Shown: piece by piece, positions 18,306 through 28,984 of the stretch
How positions within the stretch are numbered: the stretch's first letter is position 1
Layout: each line of letters starts with the position of its first letter
IMG/VR virus record: IMGVR_UViG_2886395505_000001
Span: 1-30,012 of that record
Reading direction: 5' to 3' (one strand)
DNA length: 30,012 bases
Origin: a virus
Position numbers and translations under genes: made by a program
The notes under the pieces: generated by a model
Seen by the model: the letters and a program-made list of their open reading frames with translations, nothing else
Database searches by the model: none
What the model was told of the DNA's origin: nothing

Positions 18306-18532
18306 ATCTGTAGTTGCTACAAATTCAATATTTGTAAGTTTTCAGACCATTTTCAACTACAAATAATATATCAAATTCTTTATTATTTATTATTAATATA
18401 AAAAAAAATTTTTAAAATATTCTAAAATAGATTTTTATCTGTAGTTTCTGTAGTTATCTTCTACAAATTCTTTATTTACCTAACCTCAAAGCAACTACAG
18501 ATAAAATTAATCATCTGTAGTTATCTGTAGTT
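18306..18532. repeat. iteron cluster (ATCTGTAGTT, 8 copies in both orientations) flanking an AT-rich tract; candidate origin of replication or regulatory region
   Basis: Forward copies lie at 18306-15, 18437-46, 18447-55 (9 bp), 18513-22 and 18523-32. Inverted copies lie at 18355-64 (1 mismatch) and 18493-18502. The sequence caaattctttatt is repeated at 18372-84 and 18464-76. An A9T5-containing AT tract spans 18361-18436. Confidence 0.7.
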
Positions 18533-20366
18533 TTTTGTAAATTCTACAACGAAAACCATTTTTTGTTGTAGAGAAAGTTTTAACTTTATGATATTTAGTT
18601 AATTTTCTTCCAAAAGGTGTTTTTTCATCGGGTTCTAAACCCTCGTTCCAACAATAAGTCTGATACTCCTTATAAACATTCGCCGTTGTTTCTCCTAGAA
18701 TATCATAAAGTTCTAAAGCTTTAATATACTCCATCGTTTCATCAAGACTAGCTTCATACTCTTCTTTGCTAGATTGCACAACTGCAGGCTCCGTAAATTT
18801 CTTATTCTTTAATATTCTCTTAAGACCTGCGATACCTAAATTTATCAAATATGACATTGCTTCATCACTTGTAATATCGTCTATAATGAAAGGTTTAAAG
18901 TCTTTACTCCTCTCACTAAAATTAGCGTTCAAGGGTACTATAACCATACGACTCATCACAGCCTTAACATCATCTCCAGTACCGATTTTTGGAATAGTGT
19001 TAGAAGAGAAAATCAATTTACAGTAAGGAGTAAATGAAAATTTGGGTTTACCTTTTTCCTCTGCATCTATACTATCTCCCGAAGCTATCTTTTTGATTGT
19101 TGAAGTATCTTTAATATTTGTACTTGAAACATCATCTCCGATATTAGCTAACTTATTAACTAGCATTTCTGTAGAAAATCTGTCATTTAACTTCATAATA
19201 TCTAAATCTGAATAATTATTTTTTAATAAATGTTTGATTGTATTTAAGAGAGTAGACTTACCGTTTTGTCCATCTCCAACAAGCATAAAGAACTTTCTAA
19301 GCTCGTTACGTCTTAAAAATGTATATCCTACCATCTCTTCAAGGAGTAATCTAACTTCTTTATCTTGAACAGCTACATTATTTAAAATCTCGTCTAAAAG
19401 TGGGTGATATGCTCCTGCTTGATAGTTATGCTCTATCCTATTGCTTATTACTATATCAGGTGAAAACTCTCGCAACTCGTCTGTTTTAATATCATATATA
19501 CCATTTTTAAAAGCTATATAATTAACTTCTGCTAAATCTGAATTTTCACGTACTAGTAATTCTATGTAAGCTAAAACCTCTGACCTCATAGCCTTTTTTA
19601 AATCGGGAATATGTCTAATCATCATAGCTTCAATATTTGCTTTTCTATAAATACCGTCTTCATAGGCGTGCAAGATACCATTTAATCTCTTAACTGAATA
19701 TTCACTAACGATAAATTTAGCGAAATCTTGAAATAAAAATGTCTTATCTTTATAGAAGAGTTCTTTATTAAAAGCTTCATCTCTAAGAATTGTAGATAAT
19801 TCTGTATTATCTAAAGGTTCATCAATTATATATTTATTCATCAGTTGAATAGTTTGTTTAGCTTCGTCTTTATTAAAACCTGCAGCTTGCAGAGTTAAAA
19901 TATAATTGAAAAAACTCTGATTTCTGTTTTTGTTAAAATCTTTTTTAGACTTAACAGGTATAAGCCACTTAGGTAGCAGGTCTAGAGCTTCACAAGTTCT
20001 TATTTGTGGTCGTAATACACCATCGACTTTAAGTGTTCCAAGCGATTTTTTAGAACCTAGTTTAATATCAACATTAATACCTAAAGCAGTTCTAGTATCT
20101 GTTGCTTGCTTTTTAATCGTGGTATTTTTGAAATAGAAGTGTTTACCTCTTTTAGTTTCATATACAACTGTATTTAATTTCAAATCATTAACTATCTGAA
20201 ATAATATACTAGCTTCTCTTTTGTCATCAACATCTATCAAAATTACATCATCAGCTAAGACCCCTGAGTATGAATTAGCGTGTTGTATTTCATCTAATGA
20301 AACAAATTTACTTATCTTAGTTAGGGGTTTTTTATCTTTAGTTTCAACGTAACCTCGAAATAACAT
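18507..20366 (-). CDS. bifunctional prim-pol / P4-D5-type primase-helicase
   Basis: The N-terminal prim-pol motifs are LIDVDD, RGKHFYF and VDIKLG. The C-terminal part has Walker A VGDGQNGKST. 619 aa. Confidence 0.85.
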   Translation of the reverse strand: MLFRGYVETKDKKPLTKISKFVSLDEIQHANSYSGVLADDVILIDVDDKREASILFQIVNDLKLNTVVYETKRGKHFYFKNTTIKKQATDTRTALGINVDIKLGSKKSLGTLKVDGVLRPQIRTCEALDLLPKWLIPVKSKKDFNKNRNQSFFNYILTLQAAGFNKDEAKQTIQLMNKYIIDEPLDNTELSTILRDEAFNKELFYKDKTFLFQDFAKFIVSEYSVKRLNGILHAYEDGIYRKANIEAMMIRHIPDLKKAMRSEVLAYIELLVRENSDLAEVNYIAFKNGIYDIKTDELREFSPDIVISNRIEHNYQAGAYHPLLDEILNNVAVQDKEVRLLLEEMVGYTFLRRNELRKFFMLVGDGQNGKSTLLNTIKHLLKNNYSDLDIMKLNDRFSTEMLVNKLANIGDDVSSTNIKDTSTIKKIASGDSIDAEEKGKPKFSFTPYCKLIFSSNTIPKIGTGDDVKAVMSRMVIVPLNANFSERSKDFKPFIIDDITSDEAMSYLINLGIAGLKRILKNKKFTEPAVVQSSKEEYEASLDETMEYIKALELYDILGETTANVYKEYQTYCWNEGLEPDEKTPFGRKLTKYHKVKTFSTTKNGFRCRIYKKLQITTDD

Positions 20367-20551
20367 TACCTCCTCCTATCATACGTCTCCAGCATCATAC
20401 TTAATTTATAATTTTTATCTCTCAACTCTTTTACTTCTCTTTCAAGTGCTTTATTTTCAAGGTGTGTAATACATAAGTAATACAAAACAACACACCAAGC
20501 AACAAATAAAATTATATGTAATAATACGTCTGTTTCAAGATTTTTATTCAT
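20366..20551 (-). CDS. small membrane protein (one TM helix plus a short coiled coil)
   Basis: LLHIILFVAWCVVLYYLCI is a hydrophobic span. The gene is translationally coupled on both sides by overlaps. Confidence 0.55.
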   Translation of the reverse strand: MNKNLETDVLLHIILFVAWCVVLYYLCITHLENKALEREVKELRDKNYKLSMMLETYDRRR

Positions 20552-20801
20552 TATATTTACCGCTATATTTTTCTACTAATTCAGGCTGATATCCACACCA
20601 CGAATCTTCCCAATCGTTTACGCTGACTACTGGAAACTGTGTAAATCCTTTTTCACGCAACATATCTAGCACATCATCTGCATTATCTAAATGCTGCGTT
20701 GCTACTTCTTCAAATTCTATCTCATGAAATTTCATCATCTCTTTTGTACTGTTGCAGTTTACGCAAGGTACTGTTGTATATACTGTTATTTTATTTGTCA
20801 T
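20544..20801 (-). CDS. nrdH: NrdH-like glutaredoxin
   Basis: It has a CVNC redox motif near the N-terminus, plus GFTQFPVV and W.GYQPE, as in NrdH redoxins. 85 aa. Confidence 0.8.
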   Translation of the reverse strand: MTNKITVYTTVPCVNCNSTKEMMKFHEIEFEEVATQHLDNADDVLDMLREKGFTQFPVVSVNDWEDSWCGYQPELVEKYSGKYNE

Positions 20802-20813
20802 TGTTATTCTCCT

Positions 20814-21101
20814 TTAATTTTTCATAATATAATCTATATATTCTGCTGTAGGTCTCCATGTTTTACAAATACATTTGTACTCAACACTACCATACAGCAA
20901 CTCATTTACAGTCATATCAGCAAATTTTGCTATTGCTTTTATACGTTCTTTATTTGGAAGAACTTTCCCTTGTTCCCATCTATAAACATTACTTTTACTT
21001 GCTCCAAATAACTCTCCATATTCTTCAAGAGTATAACCCTTGTTTTGTCTTATTTGTTTTATTCTAAGCCCTACATTTTGCTTATTTACTTGTATTTTCA
21101 T
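20814..21101 (-). CDS. XRE-family HTH transcriptional regulator
   Basis: LRIKQIRQNKGYTLEEYGELFGASKSNVYRWEQGKVLP is a classic HTH_3 sequence. An ATGA overlap links it to the upstream polymerase-like gene. Confidence 0.85.
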   Translation of the reverse strand: MKIQVNKQNVGLRIKQIRQNKGYTLEEYGELFGASKSNVYRWEQGKVLPNKERIKAIAKFADMTVNELLYGSVEYKCICKTWRPTAEYIDYIMKN

Positions 21102-22390
21102 ATTCCATATTCCTTTAATTTCTTATAAATTTCTTCTATATATGCTCTATCATCACGCTTTTCAAAATATGACGTAACTTTTGGCATATCTGCTACTTTA
21201 TAACCTTGGTCATCTCTTAGAGTGTATCCACTTAAACCAGCGTTGTAATAAACTTGCCCTTTATGTAGATATTGGTAATCTCTAATTTCTTTATTAGTCT
21301 TTAAATATTCTCTAGGACTTACCCCATCTAAATAAGCTAACATAGCCTTTTTAATAACTACACCGTGATAACGCAAGGGATTTATTTTAGTGTATCCTAC
21401 TGATTTACCATCTAAAATATAGTTATTCACATCTTTTTGTAATAACTCTTTATGGTAAGATATTTTAGTAGTTAATCTAGTTATTTCTTCCCATTTTTTA
21501 ACCTCTTCTAAAATCATCTTTTCGTTATGTGCTTCAATTATAATTCCATCAGTGTTAGTTTGAATGATTTTTGAATATGGTTCTAACATTTCAATAAGCA
21601 TTAGTAATATCAACTGACCATTCACGCAAATTGAGTTATTCAAAGCAGGATTATATAACTTACTTTTTTTATCTTTGAATTTTCCAATTATCGCATTGTC
21701 AGCTAATTTGTAAGGTATTCTTTCAGCACCCGTTTTAGTAGAATTATAATAGTGTATTTTTTTAATTATTGGGTCATCTATAGGAAAATAGGTGTTTAAT
21801 AACGTTGGATAATTTCTATTAATATCTATATGTATTAAGTTACCTTTAATATGTACCTTCTTTCTTGCACCATGTAATCCGCCCCAACCAAAACGATGTT
21901 CAACACCTGCAATCATTACATCAAGTTTAGAGCCGTAATTATTTTTATTTTTAAAAAATTCTAAAACATAAGGATATTTTTTAAGTTTAATAAAATCTAA
22001 GATTTTATAATCTTTCTCTTTAGTTTTTTTAGGGAATTTAAAATCAATAAGACACTCTATGAAACGAGGCATACTATACCTAAAGTTTGATTTTTTAAAC
22101 TCTTTCCATAACCTAACCTTAGTATTAAAAGTATCTTTTCTTAATTCAAAAATTTTAACTAATGCTTCAAGTTCGTTTTTAACCCCCAAAGAGGCTACAT
22201 ATTCTTTTAAATCTTTGTCGTTATATTCTTCAACATAATAACTAATTTTATTTCTTAATGCAGTTTTCCAGTTCCATGTAATCCAGACAGGAGTATTAAT
22301 CCTGTCTAAATCACTTTCTTTGTTTACTTGAAAAACAACACCATTAAGTTTCATACATTGAATACCGTTAGTTGTTTTTAAATAAAACAT
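21098..22390 (-). CDS. compact family-B-like DNA polymerase (polymerisation motifs only; no recognisable 3'-5' exonuclease domain)
   Basis: GWGG (YxGG-like) lies 18 aa before HIDINRNYPTLL (motif A, Dx2SLYP type). KLADNAIIGKF matches motif B (Kx3NSxYG type). ICVNGQ is Tx2GR-like. QTNTDGIII matches motif C (YxDTDS type). The protein is only 430 aa. Confidence 0.6.
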   Translation of the reverse strand: MFYLKTTNGIQCMKLNGVVFQVNKESDLDRINTPVWITWNWKTALRNKISYYVEEYNDKDLKEYVASLGVKNELEALVKIFELRKDTFNTKVRLWKEFKKSNFRYSMPRFIECLIDFKFPKKTKEKDYKILDFIKLKKYPYVLEFFKNKNNYGSKLDVMIAGVEHRFGWGGLHGARKKVHIKGNLIHIDINRNYPTLLNTYFPIDDPIIKKIHYYNSTKTGAERIPYKLADNAIIGKFKDKKSKLYNPALNNSICVNGQLILLMLIEMLEPYSKIIQTNTDGIIIEAHNEKMILEEVKKWEEITRLTTKISYHKELLQKDVNNYILDGKSVGYTKINPLRYHGVVIKKAMLAYLDGVSPREYLKTNKEIRDYQYLHKGQVYYNAGLSGYTLRDDQGYKVADMPKVTSYFEKRDDRAYIEEIYKKLKEYGI

Positions 22391-22815
22391 TATTCTACCT
22401 CAAACACTTCTGTTATAACATATTCGTTGTACCCTTTTTTATTAACTGAATATTGCAATGCATATTCAAATTGTTTTGTTTCTTCAAAAACTTCTTTTAT
22501 CTGTTGATCAATAACTCTTAAATTAGAACCGTATATAAAATCATCTCCATCTAATAAACTTTCGATCATGTCTTTAGCTTTACGTTTACCAAAGCCTGCT
22601 TCTATTACTTGGTTATACCACAATCTTGACTTTTCAAAATCTCCATTAATGATTTCAAATTCAAATACAATCATCAAACTACCTTTTTTACTTTCTTTAA
22701 GTTCAATATTATTTACTTTTACTTCATAAGTTCCGTAAGGAATTTCTGGAAAATCCCCTTCTGTTCCTAAATCATTAAAATCAATTCCGTCCCATTTGCT
22801 AAAATCTAATGTCAT
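22390..22815 (-). CDS. DUF669-family protein (ssDNA-binding-like partner of Sak4-type recombinases)
   Basis: The pattern PEIPYGTYEVKVNNIELKESKKGSLMIVFEFEIINGDF matches the typical DUF669 N-terminus. The gene is adjacent to the AAA_24 gene. Confidence 0.6.
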   Translation of the reverse strand: MTLDFSKWDGIDFNDLGTEGDFPEIPYGTYEVKVNNIELKESKKGSLMIVFEFEIINGDFEKSRLWYNQVIEAGFGKRKAKDMIESLLDGDDFIYGSNLRVIDQQIKEVFEETKQFEYALQYSVNKKGYNEYVITEVFEVE

Positions 22816-22817
22816 TT

Positions 22818-24422
22818 TTACTTATCTCCTTCTTTTTTTCTTATTCTTCTTGTTCTTTTTGGTTGTTCTTCTTCGACTTTCGCTTCATCTTCATCTTTAA
22901 AAGGATTTACAACAGGTAATTCAATTTCTTCTGTTGTTTCTTCTTCAAGAATAATTTCTTTAAAAGTATCTTCTACTTTAGTAACAAACCCTTCTTGTGC
23001 GTCAGTTAATGCTTTTCTAAATTCTTCAATATTTAGTGATATAACATCTTTTTTGAAATTAAATCTTCCACCACCGAAAGTATTATTAGTTTTTGTTAAT
23101 TGTAATTTTCTTTTTCCGTCTGGTTCAACAAATGCTCTAACTGTTAAATCTACAGTTCCCGCTAACATATTTGCATCATTTTCTTTGAAATTTGGTACAA
23201 ATGTTGTACGTTTAGAACCATTGTTTAATGAAAGTTCCCTTGTTATTTCTTTAGATATATAGATGATTTGTAAACCTATATTTTTAAATCTTTTAATTGC
23301 GTTGTAAAATTCTTTTTTTACTAAAGCGTAACCTTTACCATAAGATCCATCACCTTCAAACTCCCACTTATTTTTTTCTAAAATGTACGTTCTGCAATGT
23401 TCGTATAAATCTTCTAATAAGTCAATAGCAACCGCTTTGTATGTAGTTTCATTTTTTTCTAAATAGTCAATAACTTGTAAAAAAATTTCCCAAGCTGTTA
23501 CTTTTGTAGTGATACGACCTTCAACACTAACCTCATCTTTAATTCTGAAAACTGGACTTGTAGTATTATCAGTATTTCCGTCAGTGTTTAAGAAAAGTAA
23601 ATCATCAAATTGATCTACGAACGTTGATTTACCAACATATGAATCAGCGTAAATCCATAAATCAGGTCTTAAATCAATCTTTCTTTCTCTCTTTTTATTT
23701 TCTGGTAATTTAAACATATAATTTTCTCCATTTCTAACAATCTTACAATAATCACAATACTTATTATCACAACAAGTGTAATCATTGAATTTGTCATTTT
23801 TTATTTTGTTTATTGTGTTTTTAAAATCCTCAACTTTACTTTCATCATATTCAACATATTCAATGAAAGGTTCTTTTAATGTTTTAACAATTCTTCTTCT
23901 AAGTTCAAATGTTGACTCGTTCATTTTTTTTCTTATCATTATTTTAGGTATGAAAATGTATCCTAATTTATTAACTTTCTTACCTGTTGTTTTTTCAAAG
24001 TAGTACTTATATAAATGTAACTGTTTTGATTTCAAATAATGTTCTACATTGTTTGAATATTTAAAATCGTATAGTTCAACACCTGCTTCTGTCTCAACCA
24101 AATAGTCCACATATCCTTGAAAATCATCGGTGTCAATGTGATATTCAAAAATACCTTTTTTATCGATTAATTCAAGTGTTTTAGATATTTGAATATCTAA
24201 CTTTATCAATTCTTCAATGTGAGTATCATATAATACTGGATAATGCTTTTTGTAATAGTCGTGATAATCTAAAGTTTCAAGCCCTAAATGTAGTGATTTT
24301 CCAATTACTAAAGGGTTAGTAGCTTCATAGACTTCTACAAGTTCAGCACCTTTATTATATTTGAAATCAAAAGCCAAGCGGCATCTTTGGTATAGTTCTA
24401 TTCGTGAGTGACTGAATTTCAT
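22818..24422 (-). CDS. fusion protein: N-terminal Cas4/RecB-like PD-(D/E)XK nuclease with a Cys cluster, C-terminal Sak4/AAA_24 RecA-like ATPase
   Basis: Nuclease motifs: SRIELYQRCRLAF, GKSLHLGLE, GYVDYLVE, ELYDFKYS, QLHLYKYY, plus Cys at QRC and CCDNKYCDYC. ATPase motifs: Walker A YADSYVGKST, LLFLNTDG, and Walker B AVAIDLLED. The C-terminal tail is acidic then basic. Confidence 0.7.
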   Translation of the reverse strand: MKFSHSRIELYQRCRLAFDFKYNKGAELVEVYEATNPLVIGKSLHLGLETLDYHDYYKKHYPVLYDTHIEELIKLDIQISKTLELIDKKGIFEYHIDTDDFQGYVDYLVETEAGVELYDFKYSNNVEHYLKSKQLHLYKYYFEKTTGKKVNKLGYIFIPKIMIRKKMNESTFELRRRIVKTLKEPFIEYVEYDESKVEDFKNTINKIKNDKFNDYTCCDNKYCDYCKIVRNGENYMFKLPENKKRERKIDLRPDLWIYADSYVGKSTFVDQFDDLLFLNTDGNTDNTTSPVFRIKDEVSVEGRITTKVTAWEIFLQVIDYLEKNETTYKAVAIDLLEDLYEHCRTYILEKNKWEFEGDGSYGKGYALVKKEFYNAIKRFKNIGLQIIYISKEITRELSLNNGSKRTTFVPNFKENDANMLAGTVDLTVRAFVEPDGKRKLQLTKTNNTFGGGRFNFKKDVISLNIEEFRKALTDAQEGFVTKVEDTFKEIILEEETTEEIELPVVNPFKDEDEAKVEEEQPKRTRRIRKKEGDK

Positions 24423-24729
24423 GTTTTAATAATTCCTCTATAAAATTTTTAAGGTCTTCAAAGCCGCTAGGTCTAGTGACAAAAGCAATACCACCTGCTT
24501 TAATAATTTCTTTTATTTTATACTTTTGTAATTCACTAATTTTCCCACTCTCTCTTTTAACCTCTATAGCTACTAATCGTCCACCAACGCAAGCTAGTAT
24601 ATCTGGTGTTCCAGCTTGACCAAACTGTTGGGGATTGTACTTTATATAAAAGCAACCATTGTCTTTAAGAAATTTCTTTATCTTATTCTCGTAAGCTTTT
24701 TCTGAACAGTTCGTCTGTATAGTCCTCAC
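24367..24729 (-). CDS. VRR-NUC domain nuclease
   Basis: GTPDILACVGGRLVAIEVKRESGKISELQ matches the VRR-NUC core (PD...E.K...Q). The start is a GTG. The gene overlaps its neighbours by 47 nt upstream and 56 nt downstream. Confidence 0.75.
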   Translation of the reverse strand: MRTIQTNCSEKAYENKIKKFLKDNGCFYIKYNPQQFGQAGTPDILACVGGRLVAIEVKRESGKISELQKYKIKEIIKAGGIAFVTRPSGFEDLKNFIEELLKHEIQSLTNRTIPKMPLGF

Positions 24730-25924
24730 CCCTTTCTAATGCAGAATAAATTTTCTCTTCTATACTGTCTTTAACTGCTAGTCTATAGTAGAAACATGCT
24801 TTTTCTTGACCTATTCTATGTGTACGTTTCAAAGCTTGCATATAGTCTTCACATTTTTCGGTTGGACTAACGAAAATTATTTTATTAGCTTTTTGCATAT
24901 TATGACCTTTAGCTCCCGCTTGATACTGCATAAAAGTAATTGAATTGTCATAATTTTCATAGTTTTCTTTGTCTACTAAATCCCCATTTACAAATGATTT
25001 TGGTTTATCAGTTAGTCTTACTAACTCTTCTAATTCTCTTTTAAAATTGTAAAAGATTAATATTCTATCTTCTGTACTCTCTATTAGATCTTTAACTACG
25101 TCTAATTTATTTTTATTGTAATAACTTGCTAATTTTCTTAATCCTAGTCGTTTAGTTAGTGTAGTATCTCCTACTAAATCATACTTTTCTAAAACAGAAT
25201 GCTTTTCAAAAAATTTATAATCTCTACTAGTATCAACTTTAATATCGATAAAGTTTTGTTTAGGTAATTCAAAAGCGTCTTCTGTTTTCATGAACACGCA
25301 AGAAAGTTCTTTCATAGTGTTTTTAAGACGATTCACATTTTTATAAGGGTTAAATTTATCTAACTCATAAAATTTACGACCAAACCTACTAATTAACTTT
25401 TGGTTTAAAAAGGTCTTATTAAATTCTGGATTAGTCATATCTAAACCTAAAAGCGATAATTGAAAGTATAGCTTTTCGTACTTTCCGCTAACAGGAGTAC
25501 CAGATAGTAAAATTAAATTACTGTAATTCATTTTTTTAACAGCTTTACAAATCTGCGTTTTAGGATTTCCTAAAATAGAACTCTCATCTATTATTAAAGT
25601 GTACTCACTCATTTTTAATAATTTTGAATAATTATCTCTGTATAACTTTTCATAATTCACTACAATAACTTCAAAATTATCTAAACTATCAATTGTTTTA
25701 AGTGATACAATTTCAGTTTTTAGATTGTAGTTTGTTGTAAAGTGTTCTTTCCAGTCTTCTAATTTAGAATTTTGACAAATAACTATAATTTTTGATTGAA
25801 ATTCTTTAGCTTTTTCACTAGCTACAAATGTCTTTCCAAGCCCCATATCTAAATAGAAAGCAACTTTATTTTTACCTTTAACTTTATCAAGTGCTATTTC
25901 TTGATGTTTAAATAATTTAACCAC
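24683..25924 (-). CDS. SNF2-family DEAD/DEAH helicase
   Basis: Motif I is DMGLGKT, motif II is IIDESS and motif VI is QALKRTHRIGQ. 413 aa. Confidence 0.88.
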   Translation of the reverse strand: MVKLFKHQEIALDKVKGKNKVAFYLDMGLGKTFVASEKAKEFQSKIIVICQNSKLEDWKEHFTTNYNLKTEIVSLKTIDSLDNFEVIVVNYEKLYRDNYSKLLKMSEYTLIIDESSILGNPKTQICKAVKKMNYSNLILLSGTPVSGKYEKLYFQLSLLGLDMTNPEFNKTFLNQKLISRFGRKFYELDKFNPYKNVNRLKNTMKELSCVFMKTEDAFELPKQNFIDIKVDTSRDYKFFEKHSVLEKYDLVGDTTLTKRLGLRKLASYYNKNKLDVVKDLIESTEDRILIFYNFKRELEELVRLTDKPKSFVNGDLVDKENYENYDNSITFMQYQAGAKGHNMQKANKIIFVSPTEKCEDYMQALKRTHRIGQEKACFYYRLAVKDSIEEKIYSALERGEDYTDELFRKSLRE

Positions 25925-27354: not shown

Positions 27355-27624
27355 TTAATCTTCCTTACCATTATTCTCACCTCCTTTCATTTCTAAAACT
27401 AAACTTCTCATCTCCTTTACTGTTAATCCTAGTATTTTTCTAAGGCGATGTGTGTTATATTTTGTTAGTGGTTTTCCAGCACGACTACAACACTGACTAA
27501 CGTATTGCATATCCTGCGGAGTATGATTTCTTATTAAAAATACTCTTTGTCTTGCATTTTTAATACCTCTTTTCTTTTCTAGAAACCTTATAAAATCCCC
27601 TAATACGTATTTATCAGTATTCAT
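27355..27624 (-). CDS. hypothetical protein (89 aa), possibly DNA-binding
   Basis: It overlaps the MazG-like gene end by 11 nt. It is basic, and the LRKILGLTVKEMRSLV segment is HTH-like. No firm motif was recognised. Confidence 0.55.
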   Translation of the reverse strand: MNTDKYVLGDFIRFLEKKRGIKNARQRVFLIRNHTPQDMQYVSQCCSRAGKPLTKYNTHRLRKILGLTVKEMRSLVLEMKGGENNGKED

Positions 27625-28138
27625 CTTTTACAAAACTCCCATTAACTATCTTACCTGTCCTTTTACTGTTTTTCTCGATAGCTAAGCTTAAAGCATAACT
27701 CAAATTAGAATCAGCATTAATAACAATTCTATTTAATGTGTTTAACAGTTCTTTTACTGCAAATAAATTAAATTTTTTAGTCATATTCCAAGTAAATAAA
27801 ATATCTGTATATTTTATATATAAATCCAAAACTAAATCTGTATAATGTTTTGCTCCTTTAACTGTATAAAATTTAATTTTTAAGAAATTTTCAAGTGTCT
27901 TATCTCTGTCTTTAGTATGTAAATAATCACTAATTATTAAAGTAACAATCACATCTCCTGCTTCGGAAAAGACTTTACCACGGCTACTTAAACTCTTGTG
28001 AGTTAGTACTAACTCTGTACATAATTCATTAACTTCCTCTCCGACTTTCATTAGCTGTTTATCATATATAAACTCATTTAGTGCATCTTTATCATCTGCC
28101 CAATCTAAAACTTTATTAATTAATTCTTTTTTTAACAT
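27614..28138 (-). CDS. MazG-like all-alpha NTP pyrophosphohydrolase
   Basis: KVGEEVNELCTE and EAGDVIVTLI match the EExxE / ExxD metal-binding helices of the MazG/dCTPase-like family. 174 aa. Confidence 0.55.
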   Translation of the reverse strand: MLKKELINKVLDWADDKDALNEFIYDKQLMKVGEEVNELCTELVLTHKSLSSRGKVFSEAGDVIVTLIISDYLHTKDRDKTLENFLKIKFYTVKGAKHYTDLVLDLYIKYTDILFTWNMTKKFNLFAVKELLNTLNRIVINADSNLSYALSLAIEKNSKRTGKIVNGSFVKDEY

Positions 28139-28789: not shown

Positions 28790-28984
28790 TTATTTAAAAA
28801 CATTTAAATCTATATCTAGTTCTCTAGCTATTTTGACTGTATCGCTAAATTTTGGCGATTCAACTTTGTTATTAGCAATTTTATACAAGAGTGGTTGACT
28901 AATTCCTGTCAGTTTAGATAACTTGTATCTGCTTATTCCTTTTTCTTTTAATTTTTCATTCATTATGTTACGAAATTTATCCAT
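28790..28984 (-). CDS. Cro-like XRE-family HTH regulator (64 aa)
   Basis: GISRYKLSKLTGISQPLLYKIANNK is an HTH_3 sequence. SD AAGGAGAAG is present. It is the first gene leftward of the divergent promoter region. Confidence 0.8.
   Translation of the reverse strand: MDKFRNIMNEKLKEKGISRYKLSKLTGISQPLLYKIANNKVESPKFSDTVKIARELDIDLNVFK

Follow-up and report, generated by a model that had tools for sequence, protein, structure and literature searches.

A gene on the minus strand of a 30,012-bp viral contig (positions 21098-22390 of IMG/VR record IMGVR_UViG_2886395505_000001; the whole contig is referred to as the window) encodes a 430-amino-acid (aa) protein with the core of a family-B DNA polymerase (PolB). 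The gene probably specifies a catalytically active, primer-dependent and proofreading-free polymerase of a Gemella phage replication module, reduced from an exonuclease-proficient PolB of 550-600 aa. The contig carries genes for the large and small terminase subunits, portal, major head protein and tail as well as an early region, and is a siphophage or prophage of Gemella, a bacterium of the mouth. The polymerase is identical to a hypothetical protein (IR073_06560) of Gemella sp. 19428wG2_WT2a. Its parent family is already annotated as phage DNA polymerase and the novelty is the exonuclease-decayed, shortened subclade described here; literature searches returned no such subclade of this PHROG 1252-type family and nothing specific on Gemella phage polymerases.

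Reading frame, motifs and family-B core

The reduced polymerase gene was delimited from a list of open reading frames (ORFs) and identified with PHROG profiles, homologues, an AlphaFold2 (AF2) model and Foldseek. There is no upstream extension of the ORF, since the list begins each frame at the first start codon after a stop. The ATG overlaps the stop codon of a DUF669 gene (TAATG) and is preceded by a GAGG Shine-Dalgarno sequence, whilst the TGA overlaps the ATG of an XRE-family helix-turn-helix (HTH) gene (ATGA; ggaatATGAaaa), an overlap already given in an earlier, sequence-only reading of the window. The ORF, the motifs quoted in that reading and its spacings of 18 aa from GWGG to D189 and 39 aa between motifs A and B were likewise all as given.

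The polymerisation motifs were compared across an alignment of 78 short and long family sequences. A YxGG-like motif, GWGG, occupies residues 168-171 (21878-21889), with G170 and G171 invariant, and its last glycine lies 18 aa ahead of D189. Motif A, HIDINRNYPTLL, at residues 187-198 (21797-21832), contains the putative catalytic D189, the putative steric-gate Y194 and P195, all of them invariant. Motif B, KLADNAIIGKF, at residues 228-238 (21677-21709), falls on the second finger helix, with K228 and G236 invariant and N232 nearly so, and is followed by the Tx2GR-like ICVNGQ at residues 254-259. Motif C, QTNTDGIII, at residues 277-285 (21536-21562), includes the invariant N279-T280-D281-G282, and this NTDG is a hallmark of the family. 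The KxY-region motif QKDVNNY, at residues 318-324 (21419-21439), is almost invariant across the family, Q318/D320-Y324 being invariant in the alignment. All of these motifs are encoded on the minus strand, and the spacing is 39 aa between motifs A and B and 51 aa between motifs B and C.

Relative to the Kx3NSxYG consensus, motif B of the 430-aa protein has Ala in place of Ser and Ile in place of Tyr, as in most of the family; the Tyr position is mostly occupied by Ser, Ile or Val in the family sequences inspected. In motif C the second Asp (D281) is kept and the position of the first is Asn (N279). This substitution had been taken in the sequence-only reading as a peculiarity of the protein, a view that is not sustained, as NTDG was present in 258 of 268 family proteins including exonuclease-proficient ones, and nearly all NTDG proteins carry the ExoI-III motifs. 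NTDG in motif C is thus the normal state of a large phage PolB family. Primer-independent PolBs (piPolBs) without the first motif-C Asp are nevertheless efficient polymerases (PMC7544198), and GP55 of lactococcal phage 1706, with KTDS at motif C, is experimentally active (PMC12205980). Because the Asn is family-wide, extends to exonuclease-proficient members and has precedents in active PolBs without the first Asp, it is probably no sign of inactivation. The very short fingers noted earlier are real, with only 39 aa between motifs A and B, but they are not peculiar to this protein either: the family median for this spacing is 48 aa, compared with 74 aa in Pol II, and the short clade goes a little further in the same direction, with 39-43 aa. 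What sets the short forms apart is exonuclease decay and overall reduction in size.

The 430-aa protein is a real family-B polymerase core and this assignment is solid. It matched the PHROG profile phrog_1252 ('DNA polymerase') with E=3.4e-53, residues 71-394 aligning with positions 212-576 of the 663-position profile, and 1008 homologues were obtained at E<=1e-3. A tblastn search returned 498 phage records annotated as DNA polymerase or B-family polymerase. The best matches, at ~30% identity over residues 70-399, were the 562-582-aa polymerases of Bacillus phage BMBtp15, Paenibacillus phages Wanderer and LincolnB and Staphylococcus phage PI-Sepi-HH2; more distant matches were labelled B-family polymerase, for example that of Enterococcus phage Aramis (759 aa, pairwise E=6e-23), and crAss-like phage polymerases were also present. 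Single-sequence searches were less sensitive: a Pfam scan of the 430-aa protein gave nothing significant (DUF7481, E=0.16), PF00136 was reached by only 8 of 78 family members at E<=0.01, and phmmer with the single protein found no match among PDB sequences. The profile of the 78 family members did match KOD PolB (E=1.5e-3) and Escherichia coli Pol II (E=3.5e-3), placing KxxxNxxxG on KILANSVYG of KOD and KIIMNAFYG of Pol II, CVNGQ on TAWGR and TMRGH, and NTDG on DTDG and DTDS, respectively, with motif A of the family consensus aligned with LVLDYKSLYPS of Pol II. The AF2 model of the 430-aa protein (pLDDT 88.5, pTM 0.83) gave 87 Foldseek matches in the PDB at E<=1e-3, the top 50 being archaeal PolBs (Tgo, KOD, 9N), Pol II and Pol alpha catalytic cores with E-values down to 6e-8 and a probability of 1.00 (the same kinds of enzyme made up the top 50 for a long-form model), and matched phage DNA polymerases in BFVD with E=1e-22 and TMq of ~0.8. 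The profile and structure comparisons therefore assign a PolB fold rather than a different one, and the proposal of a family-B core with all polymerisation motifs is borne out by phrog_1252, the family profile and the AF2 and Foldseek results.

Exonuclease remnant and the short clade

The first 115 residues (22046-22390, minus strand) correspond to a decayed 3'-5' exonuclease domain of the RNase H-like type, as judged by alignment, hhalign, DSSP strings of short-form and long-form models, and dN/dS. Long homologues start with M-x-F-Y-D-F-E, which includes ExoI, followed by N-S-x-x-Y-D-Q-Y (ExoII) and Y-C-R-H-D (ExoIII); simple patterns for these motifs matched 198, 228 and 230 of 235 long sequences, respectively. 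Nine short proteins (430-439 aa) align in register with the long forms, with which they have in common an MxFY start, IW in strand b4 and the helix that comes after ExoIII. At the Exo sites themselves the short forms have 4-residue gaps in place of DFE(T/V) and YDQY, and VKNEL or VKTEL in place of YCRHD, so that ExoI, ExoII and ExoIII were kept at the aligned positions in none of the nine; two further blocks are deleted. Profile-profile comparison of the N-termini only (hhalign; residues 10-44 against 15-55, P=2e-4) supports homology to the exonuclease domain. Comparison of the DSSP strings of the short-form and long-form AF2 models (pLDDT 94.7 for the latter) indicated that the short form still has strands b1-b5, helix aA and an ExoIII-equivalent helix but is missing the ExoII helix, the two helices following it and the loop ahead of ExoIII. 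Because of the in-register alignment, the hhalign homology and the conserved strands and helices, the N-terminal 115 aa is a decayed structural remnant of the proofreading domain, neither a novel domain nor a clean deletion. The absence of ExoI, ExoII and ExoIII described in the sequence-only reading holds in the alignment, but the N-terminal region is not simply exonuclease-free, being a decayed and partly deleted exonuclease remnant.

All five catalytic residues of the exonuclease and about 80 aa ahead of motif A have been lost, and the motif A Asp lies at residue 189-194 in short forms compared with a family median of 270. The thumb is also reduced, with about 50 aa of a beta-rich subdomain gone after motif C in both alignment and DSSP, and is the region of lowest confidence in the 430-aa model (pLDDT 68-85). 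The protein consequently lacks the full-length PHROG 1252 architecture of exonuclease plus polymerase (about 570 aa), and its description as unusually small is upheld by the 550-600 aa of the long forms.

The distribution of the short form was examined among 1.84 billion representatives, with clusters counted at 50% and 90% identity. Only two clusters, P0001 and P0005, have the full short architecture at 50% identity, and there are nine at 90% identity (430-439 aa), with hundreds of member sequences. The nine were monophyletic in 100 of 100 neighbour-joining bootstraps over 341 polymerase-core columns and reach down to 36-40% identity to the window protein. The two short subclades are 36-40% identical to each other and have about 100 invariant positions in common, 16 of them in the first 105 residues. 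Comparison of the window gene with a 72%-identical relative (L007) gave an approximate dN/dS of ~0.13 overall (codons 1-70, 0.16; remaining codons, 0.125). Among GTDB species representatives, the short form was present only in three further Gemella metagenome-assembled genomes (MAGs), with long forms in many Clostridia, Bacilli and other prophages. The nine clusters, their monophyly and the dN/dS of ~0.13 argue that the reduced form is maintained and not a fresh pseudogene. Other short database entries (P0120, P0146, P0159, P0184, P0224, P0251 and others) were considered as independent exonuclease losses and rejected, as they begin inside the exonuclease domain, keep YCxHD and look like fragments or split ORFs. 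Partial PolB-like matches at 27-29% identity to residues 155-375 were also seen in two Mycoplasma sp. chromosomes (L072, 6001-6768; L075, 6001-6753) and may represent prophage polymerases in Mollicutes.

Predicted function and alternative explanations

The most probable course of events is that a 550-600-aa exonuclease-proficient PolB, of the kind found in the same slot of many Bacillota phages, underwent reductive evolution in which the beta-sheet core of the exonuclease would have survived as a structural N-terminal domain and fingers and thumb would also have been trimmed. In the resulting module the primase-helicase would unwind DNA and lay primers, the DUF669 protein would coat the template as a single-stranded DNA-binding protein (SSB), and the 430-aa PolB would extend the primers. 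By analogy with RB69, phi29 and KOD polymerases, D189 and D281 would bind the metal ions, Y194 would be the steric gate for the sugar and K228/N232 would bind the triphosphate. Replication would then run without intrinsic proofreading, and a Sak4 fusion, a resolvase and an SNF2 helicase probably aid recombination-dependent or rolling-circle stages before terminase packaging.

Several observations weigh against this interpretation. Activity of the 430-aa protein and of its relatives at >30% identity is predicted from sequence. It would be unusual for 30 kb or more of genome to be copied by a replicase without proofreading, no compensating exonuclease was present among the genes scanned, and host PolC could do the bulk synthesis. 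The thumb is ~50 aa shorter, in a model of low confidence there, and processivity may be poor. The branch leading to the short clade is long (its mean distance from the long forms is 1.32, compared with 0.95 among the long forms themselves), which could reflect a change of role and not domain loss only, and dS between the window gene and L007 is near saturation (1.3), hence the dN/dS values are approximate.

The main rival, although clearly the less probable explanation, is a specialised polymerase performing Pol alpha-like primer extension or gap filling in Sak4-dependent recombinational replication, with the proofreading host PolC responsible for bulk synthesis. Loss of proofreading together with trimmed fingers and thumb would suit an enzyme of low processivity. 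The gene is tightly linked to that of the primase-helicase, the two overlapping in the 439-aa clade, and the long branch is compatible with such a role; Pol alpha cores are among the best structural matches, though this is true of any RNA/DNA-primed PolB. Against it, the long form, exonuclease-proficient and part of the same module, has the look of a self-sufficient replicase, and its slot has passed to the short form without change; no hand-off feature such as a clamp-binding motif was identified, although none was systematically searched for. A catalytically dead polymerase fold with a structural or regulatory role in the replisome, like the C-terminal half of Pol epsilon or herpesvirus UL8, is improbable. 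The Asn at the first motif-C Asp, the Ile at the motif-B Tyr and the decayed exonuclease would fit with it, and UL8-type inactivated PolBs do appear among weak BFVD Foldseek matches (ranks 20-33). The same Asn and non-Tyr motif B are nevertheless found in most exonuclease-proficient long forms; D189, D281, Y194, K228 and the KxY region stay invariant even though overall identity is down to 36-40%, polymerases without the first motif-C Asp are active (PMC7544198, PMC12205980), and no other polymerase was detected among the window genes scanned. A truncated pseudogene or assembly artefact might be suspected from a protein shorter than most of its relatives, particularly as the other short database entries are N-terminally incomplete fragments starting inside the exonuclease domain. 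This explanation is barely credible given an intact ORF that is translationally coupled on both sides, the same architecture in nine clusters from independent samples and three further Gemella MAGs, deletions that are in frame and shared, and a dN/dS of ~0.13.

A protein-primed, phi29-type PolB, as the sequence-only reading had labelled the protein, is very improbable. The resemblance consists of the generic PolB motifs and of the build of the long forms, which at ~570 aa, with an exonuclease from residue 1 onwards and no N-terminal domain, fall in a size class reminiscent of phi29 DNA polymerase. The profile and fold matches are instead to RNA/DNA-primed PolBs: no phi29-type entry was present in the top 50 PDB Foldseek matches of either the short-form or the long-form model, and GA-1 DNA polymerase appeared only at rank 47 of the BFVD list with TMq 0.26. 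In the AF2 model only two finger helices of 12-13 aa each lie between motifs A and C, and there is no room for the terminal protein regions TPR1 and TPR2 because motifs A and B are 39 aa and motifs B and C 51 aa apart. The phage also encodes a primase-helicase and both terminase subunits, and no candidate terminal protein was noticed in the window, although no search was aimed at one. These data suggest that the PHROG 1252-type family belongs with the RNA/DNA-primed PolBs. The DNA polymerase of Enterococcus phage IME199 was weighed as a possible characterised relative and, by description only, set aside as unrelated to the short clade: its authors call it phi29-like and report terminal inverted repeats and an ExoI motif at residues 30-32 (PMC10590003).

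Returning to the reduced, proofreading-free PolB, the favoured interpretation, its significance lies in the natural limit to which a replicative-type PolB can be pared down: a length of ~430 aa, an exonuclease left only as a degenerate scaffold, finger helices ~12 residues long and a shortened thumb, with the motifs under purifying selection. As an example of a replicase reduced in evolution it would be clear-cut, and it poses a testable question of fidelity in a temperate phage. If active, the protein would be a test case for the structural need for the exonuclease fold and for how a double-stranded DNA phage tolerates or exploits replication without proofreading, and such a small PolB may be a useful chassis for enzyme engineering. 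A bolder proposal, speculative and on balance unlikely, is that a tailed phage of at least 30 kb uses a naturally error-prone (mutator) 430-aa PolB replicase, kept by selection in Gemella phages and with no exonuclease in trans, among the smallest self-contained templated PolBs, or else a Pol alpha analogue handing primers to host PolC.

Related polymerases and the replication module

The PHROG 1252 long forms, from temperate Bacillota siphophages and prophages (550-600 aa), include those of BMBtp15 (ANT40111, 562 aa), PI-Sepi-HH2 (QPB07653, 582 aa), Wanderer and LincolnB and are 30-38% identical to the window protein in the polymerase core. They have in common with it GWGG, DxxxxYP, KxxDNxxxG, CVNGQ, NTDG and QKDVNNY, the same gene module and short fingers, but keep FYDFE, NSxxYDQY, YCRHD and a larger thumb, whereas all three Exo motifs, ~80 aa ahead of motif A and ~50 aa following motif C are missing from the window protein. 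Two homologues, P0129 (1298 aa, E=1e-35) and P0193 (1358 aa, E=1e-26), consist of a D5_N plus DUF5906 helicase fused to a C-terminal PolB and so have the HelPrimPolB architecture of Kazlauskas et al. 2020 (PMC7544198), a study that also remarks on the divergence of motif C and KxY in HelPrimPolB and crAss-like enzymes. In the window phage the primase-helicase has a gene of its own, and the family is likened to HelPrimPolB by architecture, not by phylogenetic placement; the nearest phage polymerases are not listed in the supplementary tables of that study. GP55, a four-in-one replicase (PMC12205980), is a remote homologue (hhalign probability 96% and E=1e-9 for its PolB domain; BLASTP E=0.018), which like the window protein is without the first motif-C Asp and yet polymerises; the identity, however, is no more than about 15%, and the GP55 exonuclease is active (D712/E714).

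PolBs in which the exonuclease is dead or absent are already on record: eukaryotic Pol alpha and Pol zeta, archaeal B2, bacterial G2, those of phiKZ-like phages and the protein-primed PolBs (pPolBs) of mavirus and polinton-like viruses (PLVs) (PMC7544198, PMC3201878, PMC11161782). All resemble the window protein in having a PolB core without intrinsic proofreading and an exonuclease domain that is decayed or missing, each as an independent lineage. Phages of the phiKZ type keep the exonuclease as a separate protein encoded by another ORF (PMC3201878), whilst none was found among the window genes scanned. The mavirus/PLV pPolBs (PMC11161782) are counted among the exonuclease-dead or exonuclease-less enzymes. 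Pol alpha is among the top structural matches of the 430-aa protein, but both it and Pol zeta are far larger and consist of several subunits; in archaeal B2 and bacterial G2, unlike the window protein, the active site is rearranged, and a translesion synthesis role is suspected for them. With phi29-type PolBs the window protein has in common generic motifs, small size and the lack of a domain ahead of the exonuclease; it differs in the absence of TPR1/TPR2 and of a close structural match, and in a context of terminase packaging and primase priming. The only common feature seen with piPolBs is the lack of the first motif-C Asp, the window context being that of a tailed phage with its own primase.

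The neighbouring genes named in the sequence-only reading (XRE HTH, DUF669, a Sak4-like fusion and a primase/helicase) were all found by Pfam and PHROG scans, on the same strand as the polymerase. The DUF669 protein (22390-22815), whose stop overlaps the polymerase start, is a probable phage SSB, DUF669 being regarded as such (PMC4889955). Upstream of it lie a fusion of a PD-(D/E)XK nuclease with an AAA_24/Sak4-like annealing ATPase (22818-24422), a candidate Hjc/VRR-NUC-like resolvase identified by Pfam scan (24367-24729) and an SNF2-type helicase (24683-25924). On the other side are the XRE-family HTH gene (20814-21101), the start of which overlaps the polymerase stop, and an archaeo-eukaryotic primase (AEP) with IDVDD and GKHFYF motifs followed by D5_N and a DUF5906 superfamily 3 helicase (18507-20366). 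The order SNF2 helicase, Hjc-like nuclease, PD-(D/E)XK-AAA_24, DUF669, PolB, primase-helicase is the same in short-form loci (L004, L006, L009) and in long-form phages (BMBtp15, PI-Sepi-HH2). The suggestion in the sequence-only reading that related modules usually encode a PolA in this slot is not supported by the close relatives of the module that were examined, all of which have a PolB of the same family there. Megablast of the 8-kb replication module against phage records gave no match, and there is therefore no near relative among deposited phages. Pfam or PHROG scans of the window's early genes, covering all but a few short ORFs, revealed neither another polymerase nor a DnaQ-type exonuclease.

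Between polymerase and primase-helicase (20366-21101) the window contains the XRE HTH gene, an NrdH-like glutaredoxin gene (20544-20801) and a 61-aa ORF. These three look like an insertion specific to the lineage of the window phage, because the polymerase and primase-helicase genes overlap directly in the 439-aa-clade loci L004, L006 and L009. The PD-(D/E)XK-Sak4-like fusion is a protein of 534 aa (PD-(D/E)XK at residues 3-227, AAA_24/Sak4-like at 254-454; phrog_8097, E=8e-171) and recurs in related loci. The Hjc/VRR-NUC-like ORF, which has a GTG start, overlaps the end of the SNF2 gene by 47 nt and the start of the Sak4 fusion by 56 nt, and its true start is probably further downstream.

The early region also encodes a MazG-like nucleotide pyrophosphatase (27614-28138, minus strand; phrog_1992, E=1.5e-17). 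MazG-like genes are common in phages, and sanitation of the nucleotide pool could matter to a proofreading-free replicase. A single plus-strand ORF of any size lies at this end of the contig (29087-29587; 166 aa, GTG start), and it had no PHROG match at E<=1e-5. It adjoins a 64-aa ORF (28790-28984), the first 10-15 residues of which suggest an HTH protein, and may belong to a lysis-lysogeny switch region.

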